DNA of 64,000 bases from an uncultured virus (IMG/VR IMGVR_UViG_3300020171_002032) (IMGVR_UViG_3300020171_002032), one strand, 5' to 3'; counted from the stretch's first letter, positions 2,641 to 19,819 are shown. Translations and numbers: made by a program. Notes: generated from the letters alone by a model not told the origin.

Positions 2641-2853
2641 ATGACCGAATTAGAAACTAGGCTCAAACATGATGGAGCTTACCGAAAAGATGGAAAAATC
2701 TTTTGTTCAGTGCATCCAGAGACAGAGCTAAATAATGATGGATCATGTAAGGAATGTCTCAGAACTGAATCAATAATGGCTAGTGACATGCAAGAAGCAC
2801 AAGCCATGAACAAGGCTCAAGAAATCTACGAGAACGACGATTATTTTGAATAA
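2641..2853 (+). CDS. hypothetical protein (CxxH/CxxC)
   Basis: ATG after AAGGGTG; 70 aa. Confidence 0.7.
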   Translation: MTELETRLKHDGAYRKDGKIFCSVHPETELNNDGSCKECLRTESIMASDMQEAQAMNKAQEIYENDDYFE

Positions 2854-2902
2854 TTCCCTTCTTTCTTTCGTTTATATGTTTTTAACCGCAAGGGTGCAAA
2901 AC

Positions 2903-3262
2903 ATGAAAATCGAAAATCTAAAGGAAAAACTTCACACTCCAATCAAGGAAGGCGAAACATGGCTACAGAATCAATGGCCTGCTCAACCAAACAAAAGATA
3001 TTCCGATGTCACATACTTGAACTACCAGAACATCGAAGACCTTTTTGGAAGGAAGGCAAGCACGAAGATTCACAATGCTGTACTAGATCATCCAGAAATA
3101 CCTGTTGTGGTGGTTGCTGTACTTGACAAGAACGGAAAAGTCGAGGGACCGCGTGTATTCATTCAGAATGAAGCACATTACTACGGTCAATATGAACTGT
3201 TCGCTTGCAGTGCTGGTATGGATGGATTTGTCGAAGTTTTCCACAACGTCAAAAACAACTAA
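2903..3262 (+). CDS. hypothetical protein (array unit)
   Basis: ATG after site 2869 and AAGGGTG. Confidence 0.75.
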   Translation: MKIENLKEKLHTPIKEGETWLQNQWPAQPNKRYSDVTYLNYQNIEDLFGRKASTKIHNAVLDHPEIPVVVVAVLDKNGKVEGPRVFIQNEAHYYGQYELFACSAGMDGFVEVFHNVKNN

Positions 3263-3321
3263 ACCCTTTCCTTTTTCTCTCTTCCATACTGTTAAGCGTC
3301 TTTATGCGAAGGGTGTAGAAA

Positions 3322-3483
3322 ATGAGCAAGAAGATAACAATTGTTTATCATAAAGGCAAACCGACAATAGAGAATCTGAAAGCCATAGTTGCCATGCTCT
3401 CTGACGGCTATCTTCAGGGTTACGAGCAACCTACGGGTATAAATTGGGAAGTCATGGGAGACTATGACGAACTACTGAATTAG
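3322..3483 (+). CDS. small hypothetical protein, 53 aa (MSKKITIVYH...)
   Basis: Fills the interval between sites 3289 and 3496; below the ORF-track size cutoff. Confidence 0.7.
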   Translation: MSKKITIVYHKGKPTIENLKAIVAMLSDGYLQGYEQPTGINWEVMGDYDELLN

Positions 3484-3528
3484 CTTCTCCTTTTTCTGTT
3501 AATATGGAATATCTGCAAGGGTGATGAT

Positions 3529-3690
3529 ATGCAGGTCAAGATAAAGTACGACAATAGCAATGAAGTAGGCTCCATGTCGCCTGAGTATTGGATGCTAGTA
3601 GTCGAGTTGCGCGGTGCGCCAAAAATAGTGGATATGGTAAAGGAACACATTAGAGAGCTAATGAAGAATAACAAGGCCGTTGAATGGTAA
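3529..3690 (+). CDS. small hypothetical protein, 53 aa (MQVKIKYDN...)
   Basis: Fills the interval between sites 3496 and 3712. Confidence 0.7.
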   Translation: MQVKIKYDNSNEVGSMSPEYWMLVVELRGAPKIVDMVKEHIRELMKNNKAVEW

Positions 3691-3750
3691 ACCCCATACC
3701 TTTTTCTCTTTCGTTTAAATAGAATTAACTGCAAGAAGGGTGATAAAATC

Positions 3751-4389
3751 ATGCCGACTGGATATACAGCCATGTTAGACGATAACCCTAAAATGACCAC
3801 TCAACAATGGATTATGCAGGGGTTAGCAAGAGCCTTTGGAATTTGTGTAATTCTCCGCGATGAGTCTCTTAATCTAACGGAAGAACAGATCACGCAGAGA
3901 ATCGCTGAAGATGGCAAACGTGACATTGGCTATCATCAAACAGAATTGAACAAGGCTATAGAAGAATCCGTCAAGCTCGCTAAGAGAACTGAAGTAGAAT
4001 GGGAGACCGCTTGGCAAAAAGACGAACAGGAAAAAGAACAACACAACAAGAACTCGATTGCCAGAGCAAAGAAAATGACAGAAAGACACTTTCAAGTCAT
4101 AAATGACTTAGAACGCATTTTAGCCTCGCCCGAAGTCGATGAAATCACAAAGAACATCGCCAACTATGGCATAGAACAACTTAAGCTTGTTAAAAGCGAA
4201 CGCGAACCCTATATCCAAGAATCTATACCTTTTGAAGCCTACAGAGTTAACACCATCAAATCCAACACCAGAGACATTCAATATTACACTGAAGAACTAG
4301 ACAAAGAAAAAGAGCGAGTGAATGGCCGAGTCCTTGCTTACTCCAAATTACGGAAAGACTTAGATGCAGTTTTCCATACAAAAACCTAA
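3751..4389 (+). CDS. coiled-coil hypothetical protein (MPTGYTA N-terminus)
   Basis: 212 aa, helical and charged; between sites 3712 and 4404. Confidence 0.8.
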   Translation: MPTGYTAMLDDNPKMTTQQWIMQGLARAFGICVILRDESLNLTEEQITQRIAEDGKRDIGYHQTELNKAIEESVKLAKRTEVEWETAWQKDEQEKEQHNKNSIARAKKMTERHFQVINDLERILASPEVDEITKNIANYGIEQLKLVKSEREPYIQESIPFEAYRVNTIKSNTRDIQYYTEELDKEKERVNGRVLAYSKLRKDLDAVFHTKT

Positions 4390-4436
4390 GCTTCTCTTTT
4401 TTTCGTTTAAGTAGCATTAGCTGAAGGGTGCTGAGA

Positions 4437-4622
4437 ATGCCAGAAGAAGGATACAGAAACGCACCGCTATTCTTGACGACTACCGCGAAATGTGATCTTA
4501 CCGAATTACCCATCAAAATAAAACTAGCAACACCAAAACTCCTATTCGAGTCGCTTAACCAAAAACGAATTGAAACGGACAAAGTGATAGTGGAGTTCGA
4601 AGAAGAGAAGGAAAAAGAATAG
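4437..4622 (+). CDS. hypothetical protein
   Basis: Between sites 4404 and 4636. Confidence 0.65.
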   Translation: MPEEGYRNAPLFLTTTAKCDLTELPIKIKLATPKLLFESLNQKRIETDKVIVEFEEEKEKE

Positions 4623-4668
4623 CTTCCTCCTTTTTCTGTTAATGGAATTTATGCGAAGGGTGCAAAAT

Positions 4669-5958
4669 ATGGCAAGCGTTATCGTGTTGAAAAAAGGACA
4701 GTTAGACATCGAGGAAGCTTTAGGAAAAATGAAATGGGACACGGAGAAATTTGAGATGGAACTAGAAATGTTCGCTAAAACTCAATCGCCACAGATCCAG
4801 GAGAAGCTTCGAAAGCAATACAATCAATATATGCATCGGTGCGGTTGGCCGATGGAACTTGTTGTTATTTCTGAACCGCTGCCACAACTGTCTGGCCCCA
4901 AATTTCTGCCACGGCTACCTAAAAAGAAACAACCACTAGAACTGCCAGAAATTAAGCCACAAACAGAACCAACAGTGATAGCAGAGGCAACTCCAACAGT
5001 AGAAGCCGCATCTTCGCAACAAACAGAATCAGTTCCAGAAACGAAAGAAGCAGAGACTCCTATACCGTTAGCGGTACAAGAACCTGACCCGACTCCCCAA
5101 GAAACAAAGCCAAACGAGACAGAAACTAAAACAACCGAGAATGTGCAATCTCAACCTGAAACCGACAAACCCGCGAAAGTGAACATTGTTGCAGATGCGT
5201 ATTTCAGCGTGTCCGACCCGATACTTCTAAAACGTCTATTCGAAACCATTCACGGACTGCTAGACGAAGTAACTTTCCAATTTGGGCCTGACCACTTACT
5301 TATTCGTGCTATGGACCCCAGTAGAGTAGCCATGCTCGACTACACCATAAAGAAGGAACATTTCGAAGAATGGGAAGTCAAGAAACCTGGATATGCAACA
5401 TTCAACATCGGAGAAGTTCTCAAGGTCGTGTTCGCAGCTATCAAAAAGGACACAACCATAAAATTGACAGTGAATCCAGTGACGGACAAACTGATCTTCA
5501 CTCTCAGAGACAGTCGAACAAGAACAAGAGAATTCCCACTTCTCAGCACAGATGAGGCTCCAGAAGTTATTCCAAGACCAAAAATTCAATTCAACGCTCT
5601 CTTTAAGGTTGCCAGCAAAGAATGGCAAGACGACATCGCGGAAATGACAAAAGCTTCAGATCATGTCGAGATTCATGTAACTCAAGAAGGCGTGAAAGTC
5701 AAGGCACTTGGCGATTATGTCAAGGCCGAAAACAACTACCAGAAAGGCTCCGACATACTGCTGGACATCCAAACAAAAGAGGATGCTTGTGCAAAGTTCA
5801 GTCTAAGTTACCTCGCTAAAGACTTCGACTTCTTTGAACCAAACCTCTGCGACATCGTAACCATAGAAATGACAACTGACATGCCAATACGAGCAACCCT
5901 ACATACAAAATTCGGTGATCTTCAGCATTATCTCGCGCCAAGGATCGAAACAGAATAA
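4669..5958 (+). CDS. pcn: PCNA sliding clamp with long N-terminal extension
   Basis: C-terminal ~250 aa carries PCNA motifs (RAMDPSRVAM, FSLSYL, MPI, YLAPRIE); N-terminal domain plus P/E/T/Q-rich linker. Confidence 0.9.
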   Translation: MASVIVLKKGQLDIEEALGKMKWDTEKFEMELEMFAKTQSPQIQEKLRKQYNQYMHRCGWPMELVVISEPLPQLSGPKFLPRLPKKKQPLELPEIKPQTEPTVIAEATPTVEAASSQQTESVPETKEAETPIPLAVQEPDPTPQETKPNETETKTTENVQSQPETDKPAKVNIVADAYFSVSDPILLKRLFETIHGLLDEVTFQFGPDHLLIRAMDPSRVAMLDYTIKKEHFEEWEVKKPGYATFNIGEVLKVVFAAIKKDTTIKLTVNPVTDKLIFTLRDSRTRTREFPLLSTDEAPEVIPRPKIQFNALFKVASKEWQDDIAEMTKASDHVEIHVTQEGVKVKALGDYVKAENNYQKGSDILLDIQTKEDACAKFSLSYLAKDFDFFEPNLCDIVTIEMTTDMPIRATLHTKFGDLQHYLAPRIETE

Positions 5959-5975
5959 CCCCCTCTTCTTTTTTT

Positions 5976-6160
5976 AAGGGTGCTGGTTGAGGGCATGGTC
6001 AAACCCTAACGGGAATTTACGTGAGACATTGCCCTCAAACCCTTAAGGGTGGAATGGCGATTTGGACAAGGAAGGGGGGCTTCAAGGCTTAAAAACCACC
6101 GCAACCCCTGGGATTCCAGCGAGTCGGAAAGCTTGGTTTGTCAGTCGCTCCAAAACCCTT
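5976..6160 (+). ncRNA. two tandem candidate small structured RNAs, each closed by AAGGGT/ACCCTT
   Basis: Unit 1 (5976-6044): TTGAGGGCA/TGCCCTCAA stem with CCC-TAAC-GGG hairpin. Unit 2 (6045-6160): GCGATT/AGTCGC, GACAAG/TTTGTC, CTGG-GATT-CCAG. Confidence 0.55.
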
Positions 6161-6376
6161 TATAACATGCGGTTAAGCAAGTTTAAACGCATATCGAAGG
6201 AGTATCGAAAAACATGTTGATTTACCATATCAATCAGACTTCGACCAAGACTGTTTTTTCCATGCGTAAAATTAACTGCAACATGAAAATCGGTTTTCAC
6301 GTAGAGCTACTTTGATGGAGACATATGAATCCCTGAAAAGTCGGTTCGAAGTAGGTTTCGAAGTAAGGGTGAGAAC

Positions 6377-6565
6377 TTGAAGATCAAAATAGAAGTAGAC
6401 GATGACGAATTTCCCCAGGAGTGGCCTCGCTTTCCAGAGCATTTGATACTAATGTGGGCTGGCGTAAGAGAAGAACTCTTGCAGAGGCTAATTAGCTATG
6501 TAGTGCTTATTCCTCCTTTATTGCCAGCAGTCATGGCAATATCTGAACTGAGGAAGAAACATTAA
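6377..6565 (+). CDS. hypothetical protein
   Basis: TTG start after AAGGGTG. Confidence 0.6.
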   Translation: MKIKIEVDDDEFPQEWPRFPEHLILMWAGVREELLQRLISYVVLIPPLLPAVMAISELRKKH

Positions 6566-6608
6566 TCCCATTTTTTCTGTTAATGATTATTACGCGAAGG
6601 GTGATCTC

Positions 6609-6995
6609 ATGGATATCAAGCATGTATGTTCGAAATGCGGTCAATCTTGTGGTTGGCGCGGTCCACCCTTTGAAGGACGATGGGGCAAACTCAGAGCGAT
6701 ACTTTTCCATCTCAGACGACGAACCCTTTTCTCGAAAGATTCTAAGAACTATCCATTCCTTCGATGCATAAATTGCGGGTATGTTGTCACTTTCCGAGAA
6801 TATAGCGAACTCCAACAAATTCCTAGAGAGATGGGGCTTCTTAGAGGAGTTAGAGCCGTAAACCAAGACATAGGTAAATTCATGAAGCATGGACATCAAG
6901 CTTCTTGGTATCGAAAAAACGTTAAAGCAAAGGTTCAACCAGAAGACGACGATGACGAAGACTACTTTGATGAACAAGAGGATCCTGCTGACTAA
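6609..6995 (+). CDS. zinc-finger protein with acidic tail
   Basis: CSKC and CINC pairs; EDDDDEDYFDE tail. Confidence 0.7.
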   Translation: MDIKHVCSKCGQSCGWRGPPFEGRWGKLRAILFHLRRRTLFSKDSKNYPFLRCINCGYVVTFREYSELQQIPREMGLLRGVRAVNQDIGKFMKHGHQASWYRKNVKAKVQPEDDDDEDYFDEQEDPAD

Positions 6996-7044
6996 CTCCC
7001 TCTTTTTATACAGTTAAGGAAGCTTATACGAAAAGGGTGAGATT

Positions 7045-7392
7045 TTGAAGCCTACACGGAAACAGTTAATCGAAGAAATAGTGATTCAAGGATACAAAGT
7101 TGCTCTCAACAAATATCACGGTGGCATGTGTCCAGCTATACGTGAAATCAAACCATCCATTATGCGACAATTCAAATTGAATCGTTGGGATTTTGATAGG
7201 CTGCTTCTTTCTGAAGGGCATCTGGACTATTATAAAGATGGCATAAACTTAGCTTCATGTGGAAGAAAAGTCTCTACGAACTTGGAGTATGTAACATTTG
7301 ACCATGAACATCCGACCATTATGAATAGCTACTGTTTTTTCCAAATTAACCCTGAAGTTGCTAGAAAAATCATCGAGCGTCACAAATCATAA
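7045..7392 (+). CDS. hypothetical protein
   Basis: Between sites 7011 and 7404. Confidence 0.7.
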   Translation: MKPTRKQLIEEIVIQGYKVALNKYHGGMCPAIREIKPSIMRQFKLNRWDFDRLLLSEGHLDYYKDGINLASCGRKVSTNLEYVTFDHEHPTIMNSYCFFQINPEVARKIIERHKS

Positions 7393-7435
7393 CCTTTTTC
7401 TTTCTGTTAAAACAAGTTAAGCGAAGGGTGCGAAA

Positions 7436-7693
7436 ATGGCGAAAATATACACAGACATAGAAGCGAAAGAGTTTTTCAGTCATAAGAAAATCAAACTTGA
7501 GGTCATCACAGATAACACTGGTAATGTGCTTCAAATTGAACCTTGCGCGGAGGACAGAAAGAAACTTCTAGGTTGTGAAGAAACAGTCATCTTGCCTAAG
7601 AGAATTTGGGATAAAATCCCTTATGCATTCAAGTATTGGGATGCAAAAAACAACATTGAACCTCCAAAAGAAACTGAGCCGACACAGCAATAA
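7436..7693 (+). CDS. hypothetical protein
   Basis: Between sites 7404 and 7706. Confidence 0.7.
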   Translation: MAKIYTDIEAKEFFSHKKIKLEVITDNTGNVLQIEPCAEDRKKLLGCEETVILPKRIWDKIPYAFKYWDAKNNIEPPKETEPTQQ

Positions 7694-7752
7694 CCATTCT
7701 TTTTTCTGTTAATTGGAAGTAACCGCATATTGCTGAAGGGTGAAATTAAGCA

Positions 7753-8163
7753 ATGAAACGTCCAGAGAAAATCATTATATGGCTTTCAGTAGATCGCCAA
7801 AAACAAGAACCTTTCATTGACCATAACGGCAAACCATTGATCAATTATACTATCAACTTACCATACTGGCTCGCTAAGGCGTACAAACCATCCTATGTAA
7901 AAGTGGAAATCAGAGACAGATTTCTCTCCTTTTCAGATAGACAAAAAGAGGAAAACTATGATGAAACGAAGGCATATGTAAGCGCTAACTGGTCTGCCAA
8001 ACTGACAAAACTGCGTAAGATGAATAACAATTTTATGTTGGTTGCCACAACAGCTATGGGAATGGATTGGTTTAGATCAATGGCGGATTACGAACATTAC
8101 CACAAGGAGCTTCAACAATTGAACAGAAAGTATCTACATTCTAGTGTTGAACCCAAACCATAA
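7753..8163 (+). CDS. hypothetical protein
   Basis: Between sites 7706 and 8174. Confidence 0.7.
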   Translation: MKRPEKIIIWLSVDRQKQEPFIDHNGKPLINYTINLPYWLAKAYKPSYVKVEIRDRFLSFSDRQKEENYDETKAYVSANWSAKLTKLRKMNNNFMLVATTAMGMDWFRSMADYEHYHKELQQLNRKYLHSSVEPKP

Positions 8164-8204
8164 ACTTTTTTTCCATTTAACTAGAGATAAGCAAGGGTGT
8201 CCTG

Positions 8205-8321
8205 ATGAAGAAATGCGTTTACAATAACAGTTGTACCAAATATCCTGATAAGTGTCCGAAGGAGAAAGGAGACAGAAACGAAGACTATAGTTGTCTCGAA
8301 TTGCCGTATCAACATTCCTAG
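8205..8321 (+). CDS. Cys-rich micropeptide, 38 aa (MKKCVYNNSC...)
   Basis: ATG after site 8174 and AAGGGTG; 4 Cys. Confidence 0.5.
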   Translation: MKKCVYNNSCTKYPDKCPKEKGDRNEDYSCLELPYQHS

Positions 8322-8395
8322 ATTTTTCTTTGAGGGTGTTATTATGCCAGGATGTAGAGACGACGCACAACGAGTTTTCAAGAGAAGGAAGAGTC

Positions 8396-8779
8396 ATGTA
8401 TCCTCAAAACGAAATTGATCGGCAACGTATCGAGAGGATTCAGTTTCTTGAGGCCCGAGTTGGTAGTCTTGAAAAAGAAAATGCCACATTGAAAGCTGCC
8501 TTGACTCATCAAACGATTGAGGCTGAAAGATCTTACCGCGATAACATTGAGAAATTCGATCAGCTCTCTCGTCAAGTGTGGGAAGTGGTTGCTCATCTTA
8601 ATAAGATATGGAATCGTCCAGTGACTTATGATGAGATAGTTCGCAATTTTCAGAGACAGTATCCAAACGTGGCCAAGACAGAGACAATCACTCGCAGAGT
8701 TAGAGAAATGGTTGAGCAACGTTGGATGGAAACCCCCGAAAGAGGCTCGTTCATCGTGATCAAGAAATCAGATTCCTAA
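8396..8779 (+). CDS. coiled-coil plus winged-helix DNA-binding protein
   Basis: Heptad N-terminus; VTYDEIV...TITRRVREMVEQRW...GSF wHTH-like C-terminus. Confidence 0.65.
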   Translation: MYPQNEIDRQRIERIQFLEARVGSLEKENATLKAALTHQTIEAERSYRDNIEKFDQLSRQVWEVVAHLNKIWNRPVTYDEIVRNFQRQYPNVAKTETITRRVREMVEQRWMETPERGSFIVIKKSDS

Positions 8780-8801
8780 TTTTTTCTCAAGGGTGAAGAA
8801 A

Positions 8802-8990
8802 TTGCCGAAAACAGAGTCTAGATCAGAGCCAGAAACAGCGGTATGGGAACAAAAACTCTTGAAAGTTGCCTTGAAAAACATGATCGTCAATCTCGATGTC
8901 GCCATACTTGCAGCGAAATCGCTTGGGAAATCAACTCTTCTCATGGAACTTCAATATATTAAGAGGAAAACCAGATTTCTACATACCTAA
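8802..8990 (+). CDS. hypothetical protein
   Basis: TTG after AAGGGTG. Confidence 0.55.
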   Translation: MPKTESRSEPETAVWEQKLLKVALKNMIVNLDVAILAAKSLGKSTLLMELQYIKRKTRFLHT

Positions 8991-9010
8991 CTTTTTCTAA
9001 GGGTGTTTCT

Positions 9011-9154
9011 ATGAAAAAATGCGTGTTTTGCGGAGCCGAATTCGAGTTCAACGAAGATTTTCAGAAACACATGGATACTTTCGGATGGAATTATGAGGAA
9101 CATCTTCGGAGACTTGAAGAGGTACATAACAAACAATGGGAGAAGGCTGAATAA
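9011..9154 (+). CDS. small C2H2-like zinc-finger protein, 47 aa
   Basis: MKKCVFCGAEF...FQKHM; ATG after AAGGGTG. Confidence 0.6.
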   Translation: MKKCVFCGAEFEFNEDFQKHMDTFGWNYEEHLRRLEEVHNKQWEKAE

Positions 9155-9194
9155 CCTCTCTTTCTCTTAATTTAGGTTAACAGCAAAGGGTGAA

Positions 9195-10059: not shown

Positions 10060-10109
10060 ACCATCCCCTTTTTCTATTCGTTTAAAGATGTTTATACGAA
10101 AGGGTGATA

Positions 10110-12344: not shown

Positions 12345-12362
12345 TTCGAAGGGTGAAAGTGA

Positions 12363-12629: not shown

Positions 12630-12674
12630 TTTTTTCTCTGTTATACACAATTAACCGCAAAGCATAAATTCAGA

Positions 12675-13640
12675 AAGGGTGATAGAAAAGGTTGCGTATC
12701 CAGCGTCCAAAACTGCTGGAATCACGATACTAGAAACCTATGGTCAAAGCTGAAAAGGCAGGGAGAAACGGATTAGAGATGCGGGTGATCCAGAACTGCA
12801 TTGATGACGAGCGACACTCCCAGTCCAAATATGTCATACTAGCACCTTTAGGTTCACGATATTTTTATTAATAAGTTAATCGTTAACCTTTTCATGCGAC
12901 AAGATAGAGCAGCAAGAAATGAGTATACCCGTAATTGGACTCGTAAACGTATAGCACAAGGGATCTGTCCTGAGTGTGGTTCTAAAATTGATCGTAAAGG
13001 TTCTCTATGTAGAAAATGTGCTGACCGTAAGAGCGAACTTGGCAAAAAGAATGACCTTCTAAGAGGTACCGAATATCATAAAAATCGTCTTGAGATTTTC
13101 CAAAAATTATCTAGAAAAGAAGTGCCTGAGTGTAAATATTGTGGCTGTGATGTCTATAAGGCTTTAGAATTGAACCATAAAAATGGTGGTGGAAGCAAAG
13201 ATAAACGCAAACATGCAAGTTTCACTATTATAAATCAAATAGCTAATGGAACACGTGATATCAATGATTATGAAGTCGCTTGTAGAGTTTGTAATGCTGA
13301 ACAATATTCAGAGAAAAAATGGGGTTTGCAGTGGGAAGTAAAATTTATAAAGCAATCAGTACCTAATTAGAAAACCTAGCACTTTAGGGTCGGTTGGACT
13401 CGAAAGGGAGACCACGCTTAAGGCTAAACTCTAGGGGGAACGCCTCTAGGACGTGCCCACGGAGAGAACCGTGCCACAAGTGAATAATGCTCAAGGGCAT
13501 AATCGGAAAGGGATGCGGTGTGATTGACCTGAGAGTTGAGCTAACGACTCAACAACCGATCCGCCTTGATATTTGCACACCTAGAGGTGATGAAGGCTCT
13601 GAGTTGCCATGGCGATTCAGATGCTAGAGCCTCACCCTAA
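12675..13640 (+). ncRNA. candidate large structured RNA (element B) interrupted by an HNH gene
   Basis: Non-coding and hairpin-rich (CTAGGGG/CCTCTAG, CACGG/CCGTG, GGTGA-GGCTCT/AGAGCC-TCACC); ends AGGGTGA...TCACCCT. Confidence 0.55.
12894..13370 (+). CDS. HNH-type (homing) endonuclease with N-terminal zinc finger
   Basis: CPEC..CRKC, CKYCG...LELNHKNGGG...YEVACRVCN; AT-richer than flanks; flanked by a near-direct repeat. Confidence 0.75.
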   Translation: MRQDRAARNEYTRNWTRKRIAQGICPECGSKIDRKGSLCRKCADRKSELGKKNDLLRGTEYHKNRLEIFQKLSRKEVPECKYCGCDVYKALELNHKNGGGSKDKRKHASFTIINQIANGTRDINDYEVACRVCNAEQYSEKKWGLQWEVKFIKQSVPN

Positions 13641-13687
13641 CTTACGGAATGACAAGATTTTAAGGAACTTGTCCTCTTAGAATCATT

Positions 13688-13996
13688 ATGGTTCGACAAA
13701 AGTGCGATGAACTAGGTTTCTTGGTGGAAACAAGAAAAATTCCAATAAATGAAATCTCCTACAAGGAAACCCAACCAGTTGCTCATAAGGCCAGAGCCGA
13801 GAAATACGCTGAACTGATACGAAAAGGAACAAAATTCAAGCCAATTATGGTGTTTGGCAAACGCCACAAAGGGGACACCTACCAAGTCTTCGATGGTCAC
13901 GCTAGAGTTTTGGCTCATAGAATACTAGGTCAGAAACAGATAGAAGCAGAAATAACCTTGGTAGATAGAAAAGGAAAACCAAGAAGCTGTCATTGA
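13688..13996 (+). CDS. ParB/Srx-like N-terminal domain protein
   Basis: PIMV...YQVFDGHARVLA motif. Confidence 0.75.
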   Translation: MVRQKCDELGFLVETRKIPINEISYKETQPVAHKARAEKYAELIRKGTKFKPIMVFGKRHKGDTYQVFDGHARVLAHRILGQKQIEAEITLVDRKGKPRSCH

Positions 13997-14029
13997 ACGG
14001 TTAATAGTCTATAACCGAAGGGTGAAGAA

Positions 14030-14284
14030 ATGAACTTAGAAAAAGCTCTCTTGTTGCTGAAAACGATAATCGAGAAATGCAAATTCGATGAGATTGGCTT
14101 TACCGCCGTCAAACATCCGCTTGATGATAAGGACATACTTGACATCATAATCCAAGAGAACGTGTATCATTGGCAATTCCAAGAACTAGATGCAATACTG
14201 GGAGAATACGACGATATTGAAATGCAGTTCGACTCAGGCAATGATCAACTCAGAATCTTTCGAAAGGAGCCAACAAGCTCCTAG
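14030..14284 (+). CDS. acidic hypothetical protein
   Basis: After site 13998. Confidence 0.7.
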   Translation: MNLEKALLLLKTIIEKCKFDEIGFTAVKHPLDDKDILDIIIQENVYHWQFQELDAILGEYDDIEMQFDSGNDQLRIFRKEPTSS

Positions 14285-14316
14285 CTTTTTTTTCAATTAT
14301 CGCAAGGGTGTAAAGA

Positions 14317-14628
14317 ATGAAAGAAAGTCTAGCTAATTTAACTGCTCGGACAAAAGATGTAATTCTTGAGCAGCTCAAAAGCGGGCAGCCGATGTCGGAC
14401 AAGAATCTTATGCCACTGGTTCTCTCGATAATAAATCTGATAGAAAAAAGGAACGGAGATCTAGAACATAGAACCGAAACCGTTCACATAATCGCATACA
14501 TCAAGGCGTATAAAGAACTCGAAGCGAATGGTCAGCTCAAGATCACTAGATCCGTAGGAGTTCCCGCTCCTATGACAGACTATGAAACACTCTATCAATT
14601 ACAGCGCCCACAATCCCCCTCTTTCTGA
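14317..14628 (+). CDS. hypothetical protein (possible wHTH)
   Basis: ATG after AAGGGTG. Confidence 0.65.
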   Translation: MKESLANLTARTKDVILEQLKSGQPMSDKNLMPLVLSIINLIEKRNGDLEHRTETVHIIAYIKAYKELEANGQLKITRSVGVPAPMTDYETLYQLQRPQSPSF

Positions 14629-14641
14629 AGGGTGAAAATGA

Positions 14642-14809
14642 ATGGCGCAAATTCACATACCAATTCTTAGAGAAGGCCAACCAGAGAACTTTAAAAACAC
14701 CTTCGAGATCAGTCTAATGAATTACGTCAACAATGGCTACAAAATCATCTACGCTCTTCTCGATAGCAATGATAAGTTGGTGCTAATTCTGCAAGGAGAA
14801 ATCAAGTAA
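14642..14809 (+). CDS. small hypothetical protein, 55 aa
   Basis: ATG after AAGGGTG. Confidence 0.6.
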   Translation: MAQIHIPILREGQPENFKNTFEISLMNYVNNGYKIIYALLDSNDKLVLILQGEIK

Positions 14810-14860
14810 CCTAAATTTCCATCATTTTTCTGTTAACTCATTAAGTGTAAGGGTGAAAAT

Positions 14861-15034
14861 TTGCCTGAACACTTCATATCAACATTCGACTTTGAGAAAA
14901 CCACAAAGAGAACCTACAGATTTCATGAATACGGACCAGATCCAGACCTTCCAATCAAGACACTTTATGTCAAGCAAACTGCTTTCAAGGCCCAGCCTAA
15001 GAAACTGAAGGTCACAGTCGAAGTGATCGAATAA
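14861..15034 (+). CDS. small beta-rich hypothetical protein, 57 aa
   Basis: TTG after AAGGGTG; FEKTTKRTYRF...TLYVKQ. Confidence 0.6.
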   Translation: MPEHFISTFDFEKTTKRTYRFHEYGPDPDLPIKTLYVKQTAFKAQPKKLKVTVEVIE

Positions 15035-15189
15035 TGCCAAACTACATCGTCACGGCCAAAGTCAGTTTGTTAGTCAGAAGTGCTAAAAATGCTGAAGAAG
15101 CCAAAGACATGTTCCGAGAGCAACTTATTACTACGTCCTTTCTCTTGGAGACACCTAAAGAAACGTTGAACGTAAAAGTAGCTAAATAA
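15034..15189 (+). CDS. small hypothetical protein, 51 aa
   Basis: TAATG coupling to the previous ORF. Confidence 0.55.
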   Translation: MPNYIVTAKVSLLVRSAKNAEEAKDMFREQLITTSFLLETPKETLNVKVAK

Positions 15190-15236
15190 CCCCCTTTTCT
15201 TCTCGTTTAATTACCCATAAGCGCAAGGGTGTGAAT

Positions 15237-15593
15237 ATGAATCTGACTGAACTCTGTTCAATCATTCCAAAATCTGTCGTGCAAGATGGCGATGCTGTAA
15301 CACTCCTCAGAGCCAGTATGGAAGCAACGCAAAAAGTCTACAAAACCGCAAAGATATACTTCGCTCAATCAGACGAACAGGATCAACTGATTATGAAAGC
15401 TATCAACAAGAAACTGGCGATTATGAATCCGAATGAGATTGTCTACAAAGGCGTTTATGGCGAAAAAGGAAAAAGAGTCGAATACTGGTTCATGATGACT
15501 GGCATTCTGATAATCCGAGGAATAGACCAACACTGGAGCTTTATGGGGCCTCGCATGACAAAGAAACAATGGGAAACCTTAGCAAAATCCTAA
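15237..15593 (+). CDS. hypothetical protein
   Basis: Between sites 15204 and 15604. Confidence 0.7.
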   Translation: MNLTELCSIIPKSVVQDGDAVTLLRASMEATQKVYKTAKIYFAQSDEQDQLIMKAINKKLAIMNPNEIVYKGVYGEKGKRVEYWFMMTGILIIRGIDQHWSFMGPRMTKKQWETLAKS

Positions 15594-15638
15594 ATCCTTT
15601 TTTCTTTTAATACGATTTAACCGAAAGGGTGAAAACAG

Positions 15639-15995
15639 ATGAATTTGAAAGATCTAGCAGAAGCATGGACTATCATGTGGGGAATAAGCTATATCATCAC
15701 TGCACTCGTAGCACCGTCAATCTCTGAAGTTCCAGCGTTCGCCTACGGAGTCTTAGGAGTCTTCATAATCGTCATGGTTTTCTTGATGCATTTTATACAT
15801 GGTCGCCCTGTGACTGTTGTTTTCTTTGCTTTAGGAATAATGATGACATACGGCGGAGTGGTTTCATGGACTGGAGCTGGACTCTGGAATGTGCCTTTCC
15901 CAAACAAAGAGCTGTTTCAAGTCAGCATGGCCTTCGCCGACATGATCAGTGCAGTCTTCCTCTTCTTACTCGGCATCGAAATAGCGAGAAAATAA
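15639..15995 (+). CDS. four-TM membrane protein
   Basis: Four hydrophobic segments. Confidence 0.75.
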   Translation: MNLKDLAEAWTIMWGISYIITALVAPSISEVPAFAYGVLGVFIIVMVFLMHFIHGRPVTVVFFALGIMMTYGGVVSWTGAGLWNVPFPNKELFQVSMAFADMISAVFLFLLGIEIARK

Positions 15996-16024
15996 TCTCT
16001 TTTTTTTTCTCAAGGGTGAATTGA

Positions 16025-16234
16025 ATGTCAGAACTTCTGCAAATGGAGAAGAAAGACGAATCAAAACCCTATAAAGGGGTCTGTTGCAAATCGTGTTATC
16101 TTGCGAAAGGCGACAAATGCAGATGTAGATGCAAGAAGAAATATCATGGTCTGGGAGTCATAAAGAGGCTGACCAATATGGAGGAAAAGAAAGATGAAAA
16201 CGATAAATCTACAAGTTCCAGAACCCCATCTTGA
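16025..16234 (+). CDS. Cys-rich basic small protein
   Basis: CCKSC...CRCRC..YHG. Confidence 0.6.
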   Translation: MSELLQMEKKDESKPYKGVCCKSCYLAKGDKCRCRCKKKYHGLGVIKRLTNMEEKKDENDKSTSSRTPS

Positions 16235-16334
16235 ACTCATCGATCAACTCATCAACGAAAATCTATATGCCAGCAGAAATGATGCAATAAGGCAAGCAGT
16301 CCGCGATCTACTGAAACTTCATGGCAAACTCTAA
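16194..16334 (+). CDS. ribbon-helix-helix (CopG-like) regulator
   Basis: MKTINLQVPEPHLELIDQLI...YASRNDAIRQAVRDLL; GGAGG upstream. Confidence 0.8.
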   Translation: MKTINLQVPEPHLELIDQLINENLYASRNDAIRQAVRDLLKLHGKL

Positions 16335-16364
16335 CCCCATCTTTTTCTAATGAAGGGTGTAATA

Positions 16365-16586
16365 ATGGTTCGATTAGGAAAACAACAGACAAAGATCCTT
16401 AAACTTCTTGCAGAACATCCTGACTCAACAATTTTGGAAATCGGGCATATGTTCCATAAAAAACCTATCTTGACAGGCACTAAAGAATATAATTCGATAT
16501 GTAGAAGTTTGCATCTACTGGAAAGTCACGGTTACGTTGAAAGAAAGAATGGTCAGATCAAATGGCACTCAACCAACAAAACCTAA
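16365..16586 (+). CDS. winged-helix DNA-binding protein
   Basis: QTKILKLL...TILEI...SLHLLESHGYVER. Confidence 0.7.
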   Translation: MVRLGKQQTKILKLLAEHPDSTILEIGHMFHKKPILTGTKEYNSICRSLHLLESHGYVERKNGQIKWHSTNKT

Positions 16587-16703
16587 ATAACTTCTTCCTT
16601 TTTTATCATTTAAAGGGTGACTCTGGATGGCTTGTTCGTCATCTTAAGATCCCTCTTATATGATTGTCGAGCTGTCCGAAGTTGCCCCTGAAAGGGTGGT
16701 ACT

Positions 16704-16865
16704 TTGAGGTACTTCGATGACTTAGAAGGTTTCAAACACCTTGTTCATGCAATTCCCTTGACTCTTGAGGCAAGTCAGAGGCTTTGGTTGATGCTTGAAG
16801 AGGTGCTGAGTAAGCATCCGCAATGGGAGAAGTACGTGACCAATAACTGCTTGTTGCATCCCTAA
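16704..16865 (+). CDS. small hypothetical protein, 53 aa
   Basis: TTG after AAGGGTG; ends before site 16878. Confidence 0.55.
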   Translation: MRYFDDLEGFKHLVHAIPLTLEASQRLWLMLEEVLSKHPQWEKYVTNNCLLHP

Positions 16866-16910
16866 CCTTTTTCTATTCGTTTAATGTAGCTTATGCGCAA
16901 GGGTGATTGA

Positions 16911-17078
16911 ATGAGCGATAAGAAACCACATGTCTATCTCGGCTTCAAGAATGGAAAACTTGATACTATCATCATTTCTAGGATCTCTGACCGAGAGAGT
17001 TCAATTGACTGCGATTATTACATAGATGAACCCCAAGACGCTCGGCAACAGATTGAGAAATGGCTTTCCGAACTCTAA
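16911..17078 (+). CDS. small hypothetical protein, 55 aa
   Basis: Between sites 16878 and 17099. Confidence 0.65.
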   Translation: MSDKKPHVYLGFKNGKLDTIIISRISDRESSIDCDYYIDEPQDARQQIEKWLSEL

Positions 17079-17135
17079 TCTCCCCTAACTTTTTATTTCT
17101 GATAAGGCATATTAAACGAAGGGTGTACCATAAAA

Positions 17136-17411
17136 ATGAACGACTCAATGCTCGCGTTTGATGGAGAGAACTATTGGGAAGTCACGAATATTGAGGGAGT
17201 TCTAGGCGTTCTTAAGAGGAATAGATCATTTCGTAAAGAATTGATCACTACGATGAAAAACATATCAGAAACAATAGTTGCTCTGCGAGGATTAGCAGAG
17301 AAAGGTTACGTGAGAACTAGGGGAGATCCTAGTGATGATGATGCTTTGCTCAGATTTGCCGTCATACTCAAAGAAAACTTCCCTCATGATTGGAATATCA
17401 GCAAACCCTAA
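17136..17411 (+). CDS. hypothetical protein
   Basis: Between sites 17099 and 17423. Confidence 0.7.
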   Translation: MNDSMLAFDGENYWEVTNIEGVLGVLKRNRSFRKELITTMKNISETIVALRGLAEKGYVRTRGDPSDDDALLRFAVILKENFPHDWNISKP

Positions 17412-17459
17412 CCTTTTTCTATCTGTTATGTATAATTAACCGCATGAAAGGGTGTTTTG

Positions 17460-17765
17460 ATGAAATTTTGTCCTAAATGTGGATATGAAGACTCGATTTA
17501 TTGGCGACATAGCCGTTACGACTTTAATGCTGACTATTGCCGAAGAGAGGAATTTCCTGAAATCGAACCTGAACTCGATTTGGCATTGGGCGAAGATGAA
17601 CCACTTGTTGACGGGCGGTATGTCTACTACCGAAGGGGGACAGGAAAAGTTTGGGTCTATCGTGTCGCACTTGAAGATTTTAAAGTAAGTTGTGAAAAGA
17701 GACGAGCCTATACACCTCCAAAACAAACAATCACACCAAAATCCTTAACTTCTTTTTGCAGTTAA
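17460..17765 (+). CDS. zinc-ribbon hypothetical protein
   Basis: MKFCPKCG; its stop codon is the TAA of site 17758. Confidence 0.7.
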   Translation: MKFCPKCGYEDSIYWRHSRYDFNADYCRREEFPEIEPELDLALGEDEPLVDGRYVYYRRGTGKVWVYRVALEDFKVSCEKRRAYTPPKQTITPKSLTSFCS

Positions 17766-17802
17766 TAGGTTATAACCGCATGGAAAAAGGGTGAACCCAA
17801 GT

Positions 17803-18057
17803 ATGAGACATAAGAACTCAGATATGAGATTCGCCAATATGGCAAATGCTGGACTAGCTGGAACAAGATTACATGTCAAAGTTGGCACTCATCCCGCTTC
17901 CTACGCAAATATGATTGGGCGAACTAGACCACCAAAAGTGGGAGATCTTCTATTATTGGAAAATGAACTCGAAGGTGGCAAACCCTTGAGGGTTCGTTGC
18001 GATGAAATCAAAGACTGTGGATATGGGGATATTCTCTACTACATGGAGTTGATGTGA
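17803..18057 (+). CDS. hypothetical protein flanked by a 12-bp direct repeat
   Basis: AGGTTATAACCG at 17767 and 18057. Confidence 0.7.
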   Translation: MRHKNSDMRFANMANAGLAGTRLHVKVGTHPASYANMIGRTRPPKVGDLLLLENELEGGKPLRVRCDEIKDCGYGDILYYMELM

Positions 18058-18092
18058 GGTTATAACCGAACTCGAGCTTGAGGGGTGAAACA

Positions 18093-18398
18093 TTGAAAGA
18101 CGATTGCACTTGGCTAAACTTCAGATGGGGTTTAGACATCTCCTACACTGGCATTGCTGAAGCACCAAAACTTGCAGAACTATGCAGAAAATACAGACGA
18201 TTTTGGGATGGTGAATATTTCTATATGATTCAAGCAAACAAAGTCATTCTCCGTTGGCCCGACTGGCGTAGGGATTATCGAATTGATTTGGATAAGGTGG
18301 CGACTCGAGCTGATCGGAAAAACCTTGCTAAATTCCGCATCAATCGAAAGAAAGGTACTCTCGAGCTCGAGATTCCTAAGCATTTGCGGTTAACTTAG
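18093..18398 (+). CDS. hypothetical protein
   Basis: TTG after GGGGTG; 3' end overlaps site 18386. Confidence 0.65.
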   Translation: MKDDCTWLNFRWGLDISYTGIAEAPKLAELCRKYRRFWDGEYFYMIQANKVILRWPDWRRDYRIDLDKVATRADRKNLAKFRINRKKGTLELEIPKHLRLT

Positions 18399-18407
18399 TT
18401 TATGCGT

Positions 18408-18995
18408 TTATGGTCCTGCTCTCTGCTCGATGTTCCAACCAACAAAATTCGCTGATAATGCTCCTACAGTTTTGAAGGTCTCAGTTAGAACGGGAGTGAG
18501 ATTAACCACGGCTGCAGAGGGGCTTGTTACCCTTATCGTCAAATTACTGGCGAAAACATGCCAAACTCCGTCAAATACTCCGTCTGGATCTCCATAAGCA
18601 ATACTTCCTCCTCGGATGTTGCCAGCTCTAGTATCAGTCAACTGTATCCTAGTTATTAGACCACCTTGCAATGCGAACGTTTGACTTATAATTTGTCCTC
18701 CACTGTTGCCTCCAGGTACGCCATCAAGACTGTTTGCCCAACCCCATAATACAGTGTAGTTTCCGTTGATGTCTCCTGTTATGTCCAGAAGTGGAAAATG
18801 CCAAAAATCATATGCGGTTGCTCCATCTCTCTGTCTCGTTGTTGTCATATGCGGTTCTTGCATGAGTTCTGTTTTGAAACCAGCGAACTTGGCTAATTCT
18901 GCTCCTGAAACTTTCGGTCTTGTCAACGCATAAATTAATGCTGCTCCGCCTCCGACAACACCAACTGCCAGTAAAGCCTTTGTTGTATCATTCAT
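18408..18995 (-). CDS. N-terminally membrane-anchored beta-rich protein (virion-like), in opposite orientation to the array
   Basis: MNDTTKALLAVGVVGGGAALIYALTRPK anchor; bounded by sites 18386 and 19053. Confidence 0.75.
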   Translation of the reverse strand: MNDTTKALLAVGVVGGGAALIYALTRPKVSGAELAKFAGFKTELMQEPHMTTTRQRDGATAYDFWHFPLLDITGDINGNYTVLWGWANSLDGVPGGNSGGQIISQTFALQGGLITRIQLTDTRAGNIRGGSIAYGDPDGVFDGVWHVFASNLTIRVTSPSAAVVNLTPVLTETFKTVGALSANFVGWNIEQRAGP

Positions 18996-19087
18996 TGAAA
19001 GATCCCATATTCTTTTCCTTCCATTAGGCTTAAATGCTTTCTTCACTGTCTTGCAGTTATACATCGTTAAACGAAGGGTGGATATAT

Positions 19088-19276
19088 GTGAAAACTCCGA
19101 AAGAAGCTGACCCAAAAACGATCAAACCATGGCCTAAAGACAATTCCCAGTATCAATGTAGTGCTTGTGTTCATCCGCCAGAGGCACATCGAACAGCAAA
19201 TGTGAAAAACACAATAGGCAAACAAGTCCATTGGTGTTCATACCGTCATTGTCGGTGCAAAGGCTATTCCGATTAA
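19088..19276 (+). CDS. Cys/His-rich small protein
   Basis: CSACVH...HWCSYRHCRC; GTG after AAGGGTG. Confidence 0.6.
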   Translation: MKTPKEADPKTIKPWPKDNSQYQCSACVHPPEAHRTANVKNTIGKQVHWCSYRHCRCKGYSD

Positions 19277-19320
19277 TCTCCTTTTTTTCGTTTAAGCAGA
19301 TTTATACGAAGGGTAATCCA

Positions 19321-19722
19321 TTGAACGAAATAATTGAAGGCTTGTGGATCGGTGACTGGCAAGATACTATATTTGAAGATACTCTCGAAAAAATGGGTTT
19401 TTCTTCTGTTCTGTGTGTGGTTCCTCATCATCATGCTCCCCCAGAGATGCGAAAAGAGTACAGAAAACTGAAGGTGATGCATTGGCACTATGAAGAGCGA
19501 AAAGAAATCGAGATAGAACCGCCACTCAACTTCATAGATCAAGGTTTACAGGAAGGTCATGTCCTAGTTCATTGCGGTGCTGGAATAGATCGCTCTCCAA
19601 CAGTGGTCATGATGTACCTGATTCGCAAGAAACGGATGGCACTAGATGAAGCAGTTAACCTAATTCAAGAAAGACGCAAGATTGCCATGCCTCATCCCGA
19701 TCAAGTTAAACAATGGCTATAA
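19321..19722 (+). CDS. dual-specificity protein phosphatase
   Basis: VLVHCGAGIDRS (HCx5R) and LWIG motifs. Confidence 0.9.
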   Translation: MNEIIEGLWIGDWQDTIFEDTLEKMGFSSVLCVVPHHHAPPEMRKEYRKLKVMHWHYEERKEIEIEPPLNFIDQGLQEGHVLVHCGAGIDRSPTVVMMYLIRKKRMALDEAVNLIQERRKIAMPHPDQVKQWL

Positions 19723-19819
19723 AATCCATCCTTTTTCTGTTAATCGGGATTATGCGAAGGGTGTCTGAGTAATCCAAAGATTAAATATAGTTCTGAGAGA
19801 CTATTTCTATTGACCTAGA

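Follow-up and report, generated by a model that had tools for sequence, protein, structure and literature searches.

The window analysed here, the 64,000-nt stretch IMGVR_UViG_3300020171_002032, is probably a virus of Bathyarchaeia, a group of sediment archaea. Its left part holds an array of about 45 short ORFs, one tRNA and several non-coding units, a small, accessory cargo, and is followed by an intein-split recombinase gene (Table 1). Compared with VIA structures, the jelly-roll candidate has the SPV1 virion chain as top match (Z 7.1, rmsd 4.0, 140 aligned), a match equalled by non-viral jelly rolls; P23-77 VP17 scores Z 5.6. The Pox_A32 match of a candidate packaging ATPase in the related G001 (E 1e-4) stays under the cut-off. 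The relatives are metagenome contigs.

Table 1. Features of the window, with the 6-bp spacer of each 11-6-11 site
Feature	Position	Strand	Spacer	Remarks
Site	768..795		ctacac	outside array; spacer shared with L069
Site	1500..1527		tttagt	outside array; spacer shared with L069
TATA-box-like motif	1889..1898	+		upstream of leader RNA; conserved in L069
Non-coding leader	1911..2568	+		conserved; deepest bin of RNA run X6
Hairpin unit	2569..2628	+		closed by GGGTGAGG/CCTCACCC; pyrimidine loop rich in CTCCTT
Cassette array	2865..19760	+		31 full 11-6-11 sites, 31 different spacers
Site	2865..2892		atgttt	
Site	3285..3312		gcgtct	
Site	3492..3519		tatgga	
Site	3708..3735		atagaa	
Site	4400..4427		gtagca	shared with G001
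Site	4632..4659		tggaat	then PCNA-domain gene 4669-5958
Two non-coding units	5976..6161	+		each AAGGG/CCCTT-closed; fold z -3.1 and 0.0
Site	6166..6193		gcaagt	
Site	6573..6600		tgatta	
Site	7007..7034		ggaagc	
Site	7400..7427		aacaag	
Site	7702..7729		ttggaa	
Site	9160..9187		tttagg	shared with G001
Tyrosine recombinase (PF00589), short fragment	9195..9521	+		cargo; other genes in slot in 5/5 relatives
Site	9523..9550		attacg	shared with G001
Site	9834..9861		tcctgc	
Site	10075..10102		agatgt	
Site	10402..10429		tacccg	
Site	10705..10732		gcttag	
Non-coding unit	10813..10886	+		closed by GGGTGC/GCACCC; 94% homolog in L025
Site	11472..11498		cgatg	5-bp spacer; probably inactive
Site	11940..11967		cgataa	
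Site	12235..12262		agtatt	
tRNA-Met(CAT)	12267..12344	+		CCA encoded; flanked by two copies of CGAAGGGTGA
Site	12634..12661		acacaa	
Structured non-coding unit	12675..13638	+		ends GGGTGA/TCACCC
Site	13994..14021		tagtct	shared with G001
Site	15200..15227		ttaccc	
Site	15600..15627		tacgat	
Site	16874..16901		tgtagc	
Site	17095..17122		ggcata	ggtata at this place in relatives
Site	17419..17446		gtataa	
Site	17755..17782		taggtt	
Site	18383..18410		cttagt	overlaps stops of two convergent genes
Site	19050..19077		acatcg	
Site	19285..19312		gcagat	shared with G001
Site	19733..19760		tcggga	
Weak site	21481..21508			score 8.8; over stop of recombinase gene
XerA-like tyrosine recombinase	21498..23867	-		split by LAGLIDADG intein
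Site	24055..24082			upstream of recombinase
Site	24423..24450		gaggaa	
Site	24618..24645		ccgtat	
Site	29975..30002		tgcaag	before helicase module
Site	32042..32069		tcaaac	after helicase module
Site	38172..38199		ctctca	with site 38800 brackets gene 38248-38793
Site	38800..38827		agcccc	
Site	39662..39689		ataggc	
Candidate capsid genes, two paralogs	47637..48868	+		first folds as single jelly roll
Site	62222..62249		tttgtt	

The initial annotation gave the intergenic palindrome as a bracketed part of the array's unit grammar. That grammar holds up, but the palindrome is its core: a 28-bp dif/Xer-type site with a fixed 6-bp spacer (11-6-11), and it also occurs outside the array. The array's full sites compare with 0–1 per shuffle (30 shuffles); about 11 further window sites lie at gene borders beyond it, so that the element carries more than 40. 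Among 582 sites from related loci the inner TA and C5/G24 are invariant, and both arms follow one consensus, with no distinct XerC and XerD arm types.

Format of the cassettes

AAGGGTG marks the array as claimed (46 copies on + and 1 on - in 2851-19763, versus 3 and 2 in 21000-64000) and also stands ahead of the tRNA (12259-12265) and of non-coding units. It had been judged to be not only a ribosome-binding site. It does act as one, because it keeps its position relative to the start codon, be the site near or far (6-7 nt from the codon in 319/457 units; spacing independent of distance to the site, rho 0.06), and it is in addition the 5' border of mobile units; it thus behaves as a Shine-Dalgarno motif and a cassette border. 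The GGAG/GAGG-type motifs said to prevail outside the array precede only 16/58 genes there (longest-ORF starts).

At unit ends, the C-runs (CCC/ACCCTT) described at 3263, 5959, 11931, 12226 and 15190 are present, and CCC lies near the stop in 22/44 array ORFs versus 4/58 others, one of the 44 having been read in the wrong frame (Fisher test, P-value 8e-7). In the relatives, CCC is near the stop in 260/455 units (128±8 with letters shuffled), and CCCT occurs at 200/455 coding-unit ends (66 shuffled). The eight array ORFs listed as ending in Pro (7753, 9195, 10110, 10444, 10917, 11507, 16704, 17136) do so; their enrichment is not significant in the window alone (8/43 versus 4/58, P-value 0.07) but appears across relatives (110/457 units versus 4.3% internal Pro, P-value 1e-49). 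A T-tract, compatible with a terminator or cleavage signal of archaea, follows 33/44 array stops versus 5/58 elsewhere. No following site above the score threshold was found for 109/455 coding units, and many junctions are only 7-20 nt long.

The proposal that the ends of each unit's RNA pair with each other divides by unit type. For coding units, the end fits its own start no better than the starts of other units: over 455 of them the mean 5'-3' duplex is -7.43 kcal/mol, matched or beaten by 92/100 random pairings, and real ends give -7.4 versus -7.3 for letter-shuffled ends. All units may still share a generic AAGGG/CCCT pairing. Non-coding units are indeed closed by GGGTG/CACCC-type stems, which covary; such cargo would fold the obligatory GGGTG into its own closing stem. 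The units at 5976..6161 have homologs in L057 and L158, and the tRNA occupies a different slot in L028 and is absent from the corresponding slot in L040. The 12675..13638 unit holds a 158-aa Cys/His-rich ORF (12894-13370) that is HNH-like by eye; Pfam gave no HNH match. The leader is 78% identical over 773 nt to L069, with portions in L081, L079, L068 and G001, and has no match in Rfam; the motif upstream of it is a candidate array promoter.

Spacer identity and cargo turnover

Spacers are nearly always unique within elements and are shared between them. Within elements, 1 in 3,905 pairs is a repeat and one-mismatch pairs are rare (5 versus 14 expected, P-value 0.004). Between elements, 1,881/189,226 spacer pairs are identical, 23-fold above the composition expectation, and 30/31 window array spacers also occur in other loci; for 9/12 non-array window sites no other locus has the spacer, coverage of those regions by the other loci being poor. 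Spacer order is likewise shared, with 1,190 concordant versus 52 discordant pairs, 28 of the latter involving L022. The window and G001 have five spacers in common, in the same order, their shared array proteins being only 39-65% identical. In non-redundant contexts (529 sites) we counted 1,263 identical spacer pairs versus 60 expected and 477 one-mismatch pairs versus 950 expected. None of the 202 distinct spacers is palindromic (about 3 expected, an estimate).

This identity does not extend to the surroundings: neither flank is in common in 1,326/1,366 same-spacer pairs. When orthologous middle sites were picked by neighbouring sites alone (n=145 pairs), the spacer was the same in 121. Excess identity at orthologous sites is 0.81-0.91 within the spacer (six positions), 0.51 and 0.70 at the positions adjoining it and at most 0.36 in the remaining arm positions, the arms retaining about 0.3. 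Among the 129 middle-site pairs in which neither side has a homologous gene, the spacer is identical in 105, the left arm in 33 and the right arm in 13. Such confinement of conservation to the spacer is the signature of homology-dependent tyrosine recombination.

The cargo itself changes freely. The slot ttacga-tgagac holds 12 gene families among 13 loci, and 11 site pairs lie at most 45 bp apart with no gene between. Seven of these 11 are 18 bp apart and have an arm in common, a single 12-bp palindrome being both right arm and left arm. Where a flank is at least 90% identical and the spacer is the same, the opposite flank differs in 18/21 pairs. Different spacers are carried by 20/41 pairs with a flank at least 90% identical; therefore, about one in two recent moves disregards the address. 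In the downstream cases of such moves the right arm also differs in most, and most junctions of slot-hopping genes fall either at AAGGGTG or at the T-tract/left arm. This hopping follows a second, address-independent route, for which short-homology recombination is our best guess.

The recombinase and the competing readings

XerA is the best match of the recombinase (profile E 2e-5; Foldseek E 5e-6, from a low-confidence model with a poor catalytic domain, pTM 0.40). Its nearest structures are XerA 4A8E and 5HXY; the fold matches also include the integron integrase 2A3V, with XerA ranking first. An IntI-type insertion was not found: in the profile alignment to XerA, no long insertion separates the Lys loop from HxxR. 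The box-I Arg is replaced and a Tyr takes the place of the His of HxxR; Lys, second Arg, His and Tyr (R-H-Y plus Lys) are kept, with an Arg at Lys-2, two residues ahead of the catalytic Lys, and the intein sits in this motif. Among 137 relatives, 109 have Arg at Lys-2 only, 23 at box I only, 2 at both and 3 at neither, so the two are mutually exclusive in 132/137. The family, which counts 1,462 representatives at E<=0.001, appears to have relocated one of its catalytic Arg residues, the covariation pointing to rescue. Sites bracket the recombinase gene in the window, G001 and L028, and the spacer of 24055..24082, in the orientation of the recombinase strand, is also the one at the site preceding the recombinase in G001.

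Overall, we infer, with a probability of about 0.7, that the array forms a series of exchange slots, each with its address, for spacer-matched Xer-type recombination. The 6-bp spacer would be the strand-exchange region and serve as an address, because Xer-type enzymes recombine only spacer-matched sites. Each address occurs once per genome, and the array would therefore escape self-deletion and self-inversion. Relatives share addresses in order; hence, two element genomes in one cell, presumably brought together by co-infection, may recombine at whichever address they have in common, and another crossover further along, again at an address, would swap the intervening cargo by cointegrate formation and then resolution. 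Cargo would be standardised for expression, with the Shine-Dalgarno motif in front and the C-run and T-tract, merged into the left arm, behind. New addresses seem to come from 1-nt slips of old ones. We lean towards the element's own XerA-like protein as the enzyme. An RNA run (X6) contains joints with ends at consecutive 11-6-11 sites; no joints were found in the DNA runs X2-X4, in which the same strain is present.

An unlikely alternative is that the junctions are terminator plus promoter/operator modules resembling the PeSLs of T4-type phages, which the accessible text of PMC2839356 describes as promoter/stem-loop repeats tied to gene replacement, and that ordinary homologous recombination moves the genes, spacers merely lengthening the homology. 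Besides this precedent, the T-tracts and the half of recent moves that disregard spacers agree with it, as does the left arm: for most start codons its TTAA is found 29-34 nt upstream, a distance that also suits the TATA box of a leaderless RNA, and TTTAAA (12241) lies 26 nt before the tRNA, as had been pointed out. However, the left arm is TATA-like in just 23/542 sites, a purine-rich BRE is absent (26% purines at its position), Shine-Dalgarno spacing does not adjust to the distance from the site, and many junctions leave no room for a promoter. Identity confined to six positions with no one-mismatch drift, gene-less slots, and sites at convergent gene ends and with neither Shine-Dalgarno motif nor T-tract would go unexplained. 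Like PeSLs, the sites are repeated intergenic elements in a variable virus-genome region, tied to gene replacement, but what they conserve is a position-specific spacer. We find it highly improbable that units are cut from a long transcript, their ends pair or ligate, and they possibly re-enter DNA via RNA. Covarying closing stems, the CCCT excess, units that start at the Shine-Dalgarno motif and stop at the T-tract, and slot hopping that often joins at AAGGGTG speak for this, while coding units show no unit-specific pairing, the 103 window ORFs scanned include no reverse transcriptase, and the spacers find no place in it; it may describe the second route.

That host XerA or a chromosomal integrase acts on the sites, the element protein being an accessory or non-catalytic binder, is quite unlikely. 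The missing box-I Arg and HxxR His and the 9 further PF00589 genes in G001 are in its favour, and pdif sites rely on host XerCD according to the accessible part of PMC13141974. But in G001 all 24 site-pattern matches fall on the contig of the element; 80 further genomes of the class (incomplete) match at about control level, with no such host dif found; and the element protein has retained Lys, Arg, His and Tyr, possesses the compensating Arg, has an intein in the motif and is encoded between sites. Least probable are an integron-like system with single-stranded hairpins of attC type and artefactual assembly of repeats. Tandem promoterless one-gene cassettes, the 2A3V match and metagenome-contig relatives fit these, and single near-identical examples could be chimeras; yet the median number of exact bases common to two same-spacer sites is 15 (<21 in 1,444/1,881 pairs, at least 33 in 46), which in most pairs is not enough to collapse in assembly. 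The attC sites of integrons are longer than the 28-bp, one-arm-pair sites here, whose address-like spacers and conserved order also depart from an integron, as do the lack of an IntI-type insertion and the first rank of XerA. From the early idea of an attC-like hairpin there remains a putative recombination site bordering cassettes, but a double-stranded one of dif/Xer type.

Relation to known systems

The natural system described here has 202 distinct spacers; orthogonal spacers also allow addressable cassette exchange in engineered heterospecific lox/FRT. The closest known system is that of Acinetobacter pdif modules, in which, in the accessible text of PMC13141974, 11-6-11 sites bracket one- or two-gene modules, recombination requires identical or nearly identical spacers and single modules are replaced via a cointegrate. 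The same site format is found here, and the left arm of window site 24423, CTTGCGTATAA, resembles the XerC arms in Table 1 of that source. Unlike pdif, our sites are symmetric, without C/D alternation, and number at least 30 per element; each spacer occurs a single time, and the family has the spacer order in common; and the element is archaeal and probably viral, with its own recombinase and a fixed Shine-Dalgarno/T-tract cargo format that includes RNAs. Archaeal XerA/dif also pairs an 11-6-11 inverted repeat with a single recombinase (accessible parts of PMC2958812 and PMC8371274), and XerA structures are nearest to the element enzyme, but dif is single-copy and chromosomal, and the element enzyme differs in its altered catalytic motif and wider family. 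With integrons, archaeal ones included, the array has in common tandem same-strand short-ORF cassettes between recombination sites and an adjoining tyrosine recombinase (as far as the available text of 10.1101/2022.02.06.479319 goes); unlike them, it yielded no IntI domain and, going by site length and the single arm pair, no apparent attC-type fold, its backbone keeps a conserved order, and cargo is exchanged within its slot, not stacked at one attI. Such a barcoded slot array was not found in the literature searched. Relatives look as if they trade genes slot by slot: the barcodes stay while the cargo changes.

Sites and spacer addresses

The palindrome within the intergenic grammar of the initial annotation proved to be a 28-bp site in which two inverted 11-bp arms flank exactly 6 bp, a geometry shared with dif (available text of PMC2958812 and PMC8371274). 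A symmetric profile recovers 31 copies in the array and, above the same score, 11 more, at 768, 1500 and 24-62 kb; shuffled versions of the array (30 in all) yield 0 or 1 site each. The non-array sites adjoin gene ends, sit between convergent genes or bracket single genes, and carry neither the AAGGGTG motif nor a T-tract. These same sites served to train the profile, so independent support has to come from relatives. A pattern with unconstrained spacer bases found at least 151 metagenome stretches (loci L017-L151). We left out L094 and L095 (overlapping L081), L088 (without an array), L160 and L152-L157 (overlapping other loci of G001, a Bathyarchaeia genome carrying a related element) and L001-L016. 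The resulting working set holds 622 sites in 136 sequences, some of which are pieces of one contig yet counted as separate elements. Scans of viral contigs with the recombinase and with the strict site pattern found no relatives, and 14 loose-pattern matches in viral contigs, none having an array, were dropped as chance. Across 401 genomes of the class, an array was found in G001 only, with single matches in G143 and G245.

Within an element, spacers hardly ever repeat (1 of 3,905 site pairs); between elements they are identical in 1,881 of 189,226 pairs, 23 times chance. The order of common spacers is kept in 1,190 of 1,242 pairs, and one permuted locus, L022, is involved in 28 of the 52 exceptions; a block move, a circular sub-array and misassembly are candidates there. 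Thirty of the 31 window array spacers occur elsewhere. With G001, the window has five addresses in common, in the same order, even though the array proteins common to the two are 39-65% identical. Among 1,366 pairs of same-spacer sites with enough flank, neither neighbour is common in 1,326, one in 37 and both in 3. The slot (interval between neighbouring sites) ttacga-tgagac is filled from 12 different gene families across 13 loci, and slot tttagg-attacg, occupied by a recombinase fragment in the window, carries five other genes in five relatives.

After removal of redundant contexts, identical spacer pairs number 1,263 versus 60 expected and one-mismatch pairs 477 versus 950. Spacers are therefore either identical or unrelated, with no drift. 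In the clearest comparison, where sites are matched through their two neighbours alone, 121 of 145 pairs have the same spacer; of the rest, 10 differ by a shift of one, 6 by one mismatch, and 8 are unrelated. One could take the sites for a protein operator; however, an operator would give the opposite of the identity pattern observed, in which each of the six spacer bases shows an excess identity of 0.81-0.91, the two bases next to the spacer 0.51 and 0.70, and the other arm positions no more than 0.36. One-mismatch spacers are also depleted within elements, palindromic spacers are absent (0 of 202), and spacers shifted by 1 nt are enriched (92 pairs versus 48±7). In eleven cases two sites are no more than 45 bp apart, and in seven of these the separation is just 18 bp and one arm is common to both; as such pairs leave no gene between them, addresses persist without one. 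X6, an independent RNA run from sediment, contains contigs whose match to the window breaks off at one site and resumes at the next, on sides of only 20-35 nt. The DNA runs X2-X4 contain the same strain as the window and gave zero joints. All runs were compared as contigs, and stretches lacking coverage carry no information.

Gene borders and expression of the array

The intergenic grammar is a real feature. The array strand carries 46 copies of AAGGGTG, compared with 5 in the whole of 21-64 kb. Across the window and its relatives, 319 of 457 coding units have the motif 6-7 nt ahead of the start codon, measured from AGGGT, and this spacing does not depend on how close the palindrome lies (rho 0.06, n 347). 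Of three full-length 16S loci from Bathyarchaeia, two have GATCACCTCCT as their 3' end, the pattern being unmatched in the third, and GGGTGA pairs with this end with one wobble. Being start-anchored, palindrome-independent and able to pair with 16S rRNA, AAGGGTG behaves like a Shine-Dalgarno (SD) motif. Gene ends are equally distinctive: C-runs close 22 of 44 array ORFs versus 4 of 58 others, and T-tracts 33 of 44 versus 5 of 58. CCC enrichment at unit ends was borne out (260 of 455 coding units versus 128 after shuffling), as was C-terminal proline (110 of 457 coding units in the window and relatives), which reflects CCC and CCA as final codons. Pairing specific to each coding unit's own ends had also been proposed and is rejected, since 92 of 100 shuffled pairings equal or beat it. 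Non-coding units are indeed closed by stems that include GGGTG, and both sides covary (12 hairpins folded).

Each site may carry its own promoter, as the left arm lies ~30 nt upstream of start codons, but many junctions are too short to hold a promoter. Scans for sigma-70 promoters and hairpin terminators did no better than on shuffles. With a conserved TATA-like motif at 1889 ahead of the conserved leader RNA, we would guess that the array is expressed as a single long RNA that is cleaved, or in part terminated, at the T-tracts; the available text of PMC13675443 describes U-tract/aCPSF1 signals.

Rfam names only the tRNA, all other non-coding units being unnamed. The CTCCTT hairpin near the array start (see the table) could, we hypothesize, block ribosome sites of host or late genes and spare the array.

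Recombinase, element and host

The window encodes a tyrosine recombinase, interrupted by an intein, whose closest match by profile and fold is archaeal XerA. Sites bracket it in each of the three loci where it occurs, and no second full tyrosine recombinase was found in the loci. The box-I arginine is missing in 24 of 24 close homologs. Among the 137 of 150 wider relatives that have all columns, 109 have only an arginine two residues before the catalytic lysine, 23 only the box-I arginine, 2 both and 3 neither (P-value 1e–20). We infer from these sequences that the arginine near the lysine is a relocated catalytic residue. The mutually exclusive arginines span a wide family of archaeal tyrosine recombinases (P0028-P0177).

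The window appears to cover the greater part of a single archaeal mobile element. Database relatives of its recombinase bear the name Bathyarchaeota, and a 66,447-bp contig of G001 (L015, G001:C14) has in common with it a helicase, glycosyltransferases, the 47.6-51.2 kb gene block and array genes. The binned contig and the database names point, at middling strength, to Bathyarchaeia as host. An exact terminal repeat longer than 10 bp is absent from G001:C14, whose split array may point to circularity. A host site of this type was not found, all 24 matches in G001 lying on the element.

A gene with a tandem paralog is predicted with confidence (pLDDT 88) to encode a single jelly roll. Its top match is a virion chain of Sulfolobus polyhedral virus 1 (Z 7.1), although some non-viral jelly rolls match equally well. 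Foldseek gave this capsid candidate no match at E ≤ 0.001 in PDB or BFVD; ESM Atlas matches are unnamed clusters, mostly viral. G001 has an A32/HerA-like ATPase, and a PHROGs search named no core genes. A tailless virus is the probable identity, again at middling strength.

Features of the window and of related loci
Coordinates	Strand	Feature	Remarks
1-24		Further site	Apparently cut by window start; over stop of gene 14-751
1889		TATA-like motif	Conserved; upstream of the leader RNA
1911-2568		Conserved non-coding leader, ~650 nt	No Rfam match; deepest X6 bin; fold z only –1.9
2569-2628		Hairpin, CTCCTT-repeat loop	Loop complementary to AAGGAG-type SD (array genes use AAGGGTG); also in L031, L069, L081, L098, L123, L126; longer, similar loops in L048, L084, L138, L046, L040
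2865-19760	+	Array
2896-3292, 9185-9522, 9554-9830, 17785-18383		X6 joints (examples)
4669-5958		Array gene	Long Pro/Glu/Thr-rich N-terminal part, then PCNA domains; homologs in L081, L028, G001
10813-10886		Small RNA	Family with L025, L027, L049; core conserved, outer stems differ
11472-11498		Site with 5-bp spacer	Possible intermediate in birth of shifted spacers
12267-12344		tRNA-Met(CAT) cargo	A1-U72, encoded CCA; in L028 occupies slot attacg-agtaag
12675-13638		Structured RNA enclosing Cys/His-rich ORF	May be a mobile endonuclease gene within an unnamed RNA; ORF-less ~250-370-nt kin in L028, L074, L032, L077
19321-19722		Dual-specificity phosphatase	Cargo
21498-23867	-	Recombinase	Intein immediately before box-I motif
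38248-38793		Site-bracketed gene	Match to phrog_4301
47637-48257		Jelly-roll gene
51202-61893		Methyltransferases, radical SAM enzyme, epimerases, glycosyltransferases	Clustered; largely common to G001; probably surface glycosylation
L022 1-9335		Permuted spacer order	Array end block ahead of middle block
L175 (G054) 408; L168 (G078) 751, 1499; L171 (G015) 902, 974		High-scoring single or paired sites	Other Bathyarchaeia genomes; no array

Proposed exchange of cargo at matching addresses

In known tyrosine recombinases of this type, strand exchange spans the spacer and requires the two spacers to match. An address used once per genome would protect the array, a common address order would keep crossovers between co-infecting genomes in register, and two crossovers would swap the cargo. 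This working resembles that of Acinetobacter pdif modules, which, in the available text of PMC13141974, are replaced via a cointegrate whose formation and resolution take place at two matching pairs. The window system is not itself a pdif system: its sites have symmetric arms, C and D modules do not alternate, and a search for a host dif found none. By the IntI test it is not an integron. The literature searched, a library with few subscription papers, describes no ordered unique-spacer array and no moved arginine; the available text of a Bathyarchaeia virus paper (PMC10541130) does not mention an array of this kind.

Where one of the two flanks is at least 90% identical (41 pairs), the address is kept in 21, and 18 of these have a different other neighbour; same-address swaps hence outpace point mutation. 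The address is changed in the other 20, often with a joint at AAGGGTG and a different right arm. The tRNA is flanked by two copies of the SD decamer, and L040 has the slot without the tRNA. Because of the changed addresses and the tRNA between decamers, a second gene-moving route exists, for which short-homology recombination, recombinase half-reactions or RNA-based capture would be candidates. The view that AAGGGTG is not only a ribosome-binding site holds in that the grammar marks the borders of this second route, alongside the SD role; its part concerning paired coding ends does not.

We put the probability of spacer-addressed recombination, with the element's own enzyme as the likely actor, at roughly 0.7; once a host enzyme is counted too, our confidence in such recombination rises further. 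The full picture is offered tentatively, at slightly less than even odds: a family of archaeal viruses with an ordered map of more than 100 orthogonal addresses and a virus-encoded recombinase with a relocated arginine, in which unrelated genes and small RNAs would be exchanged slot by slot in co-infection, spacer conversion would keep addresses uniform and 1-nt slips would create new ones.

The naturally occurring spacers, ~200 in number, could serve together with the candidate single-subunit recombinase as a tool for multiplex cassette exchange. The moved arginine bears on a large family of archaeal recombinases, whose members would pass for inactive in motif searches, and the arrays contain many undescribed small RNAs. 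The dif-module idea from Acinetobacter plasmids would extend to archaea and viruses, at greater scale and with the order of addresses conserved. The proposed mechanism is a concrete, testable answer to an old question about mosaic variable regions, namely how unrelated accessory genes come to replace one another at fixed positions in viral genomes.
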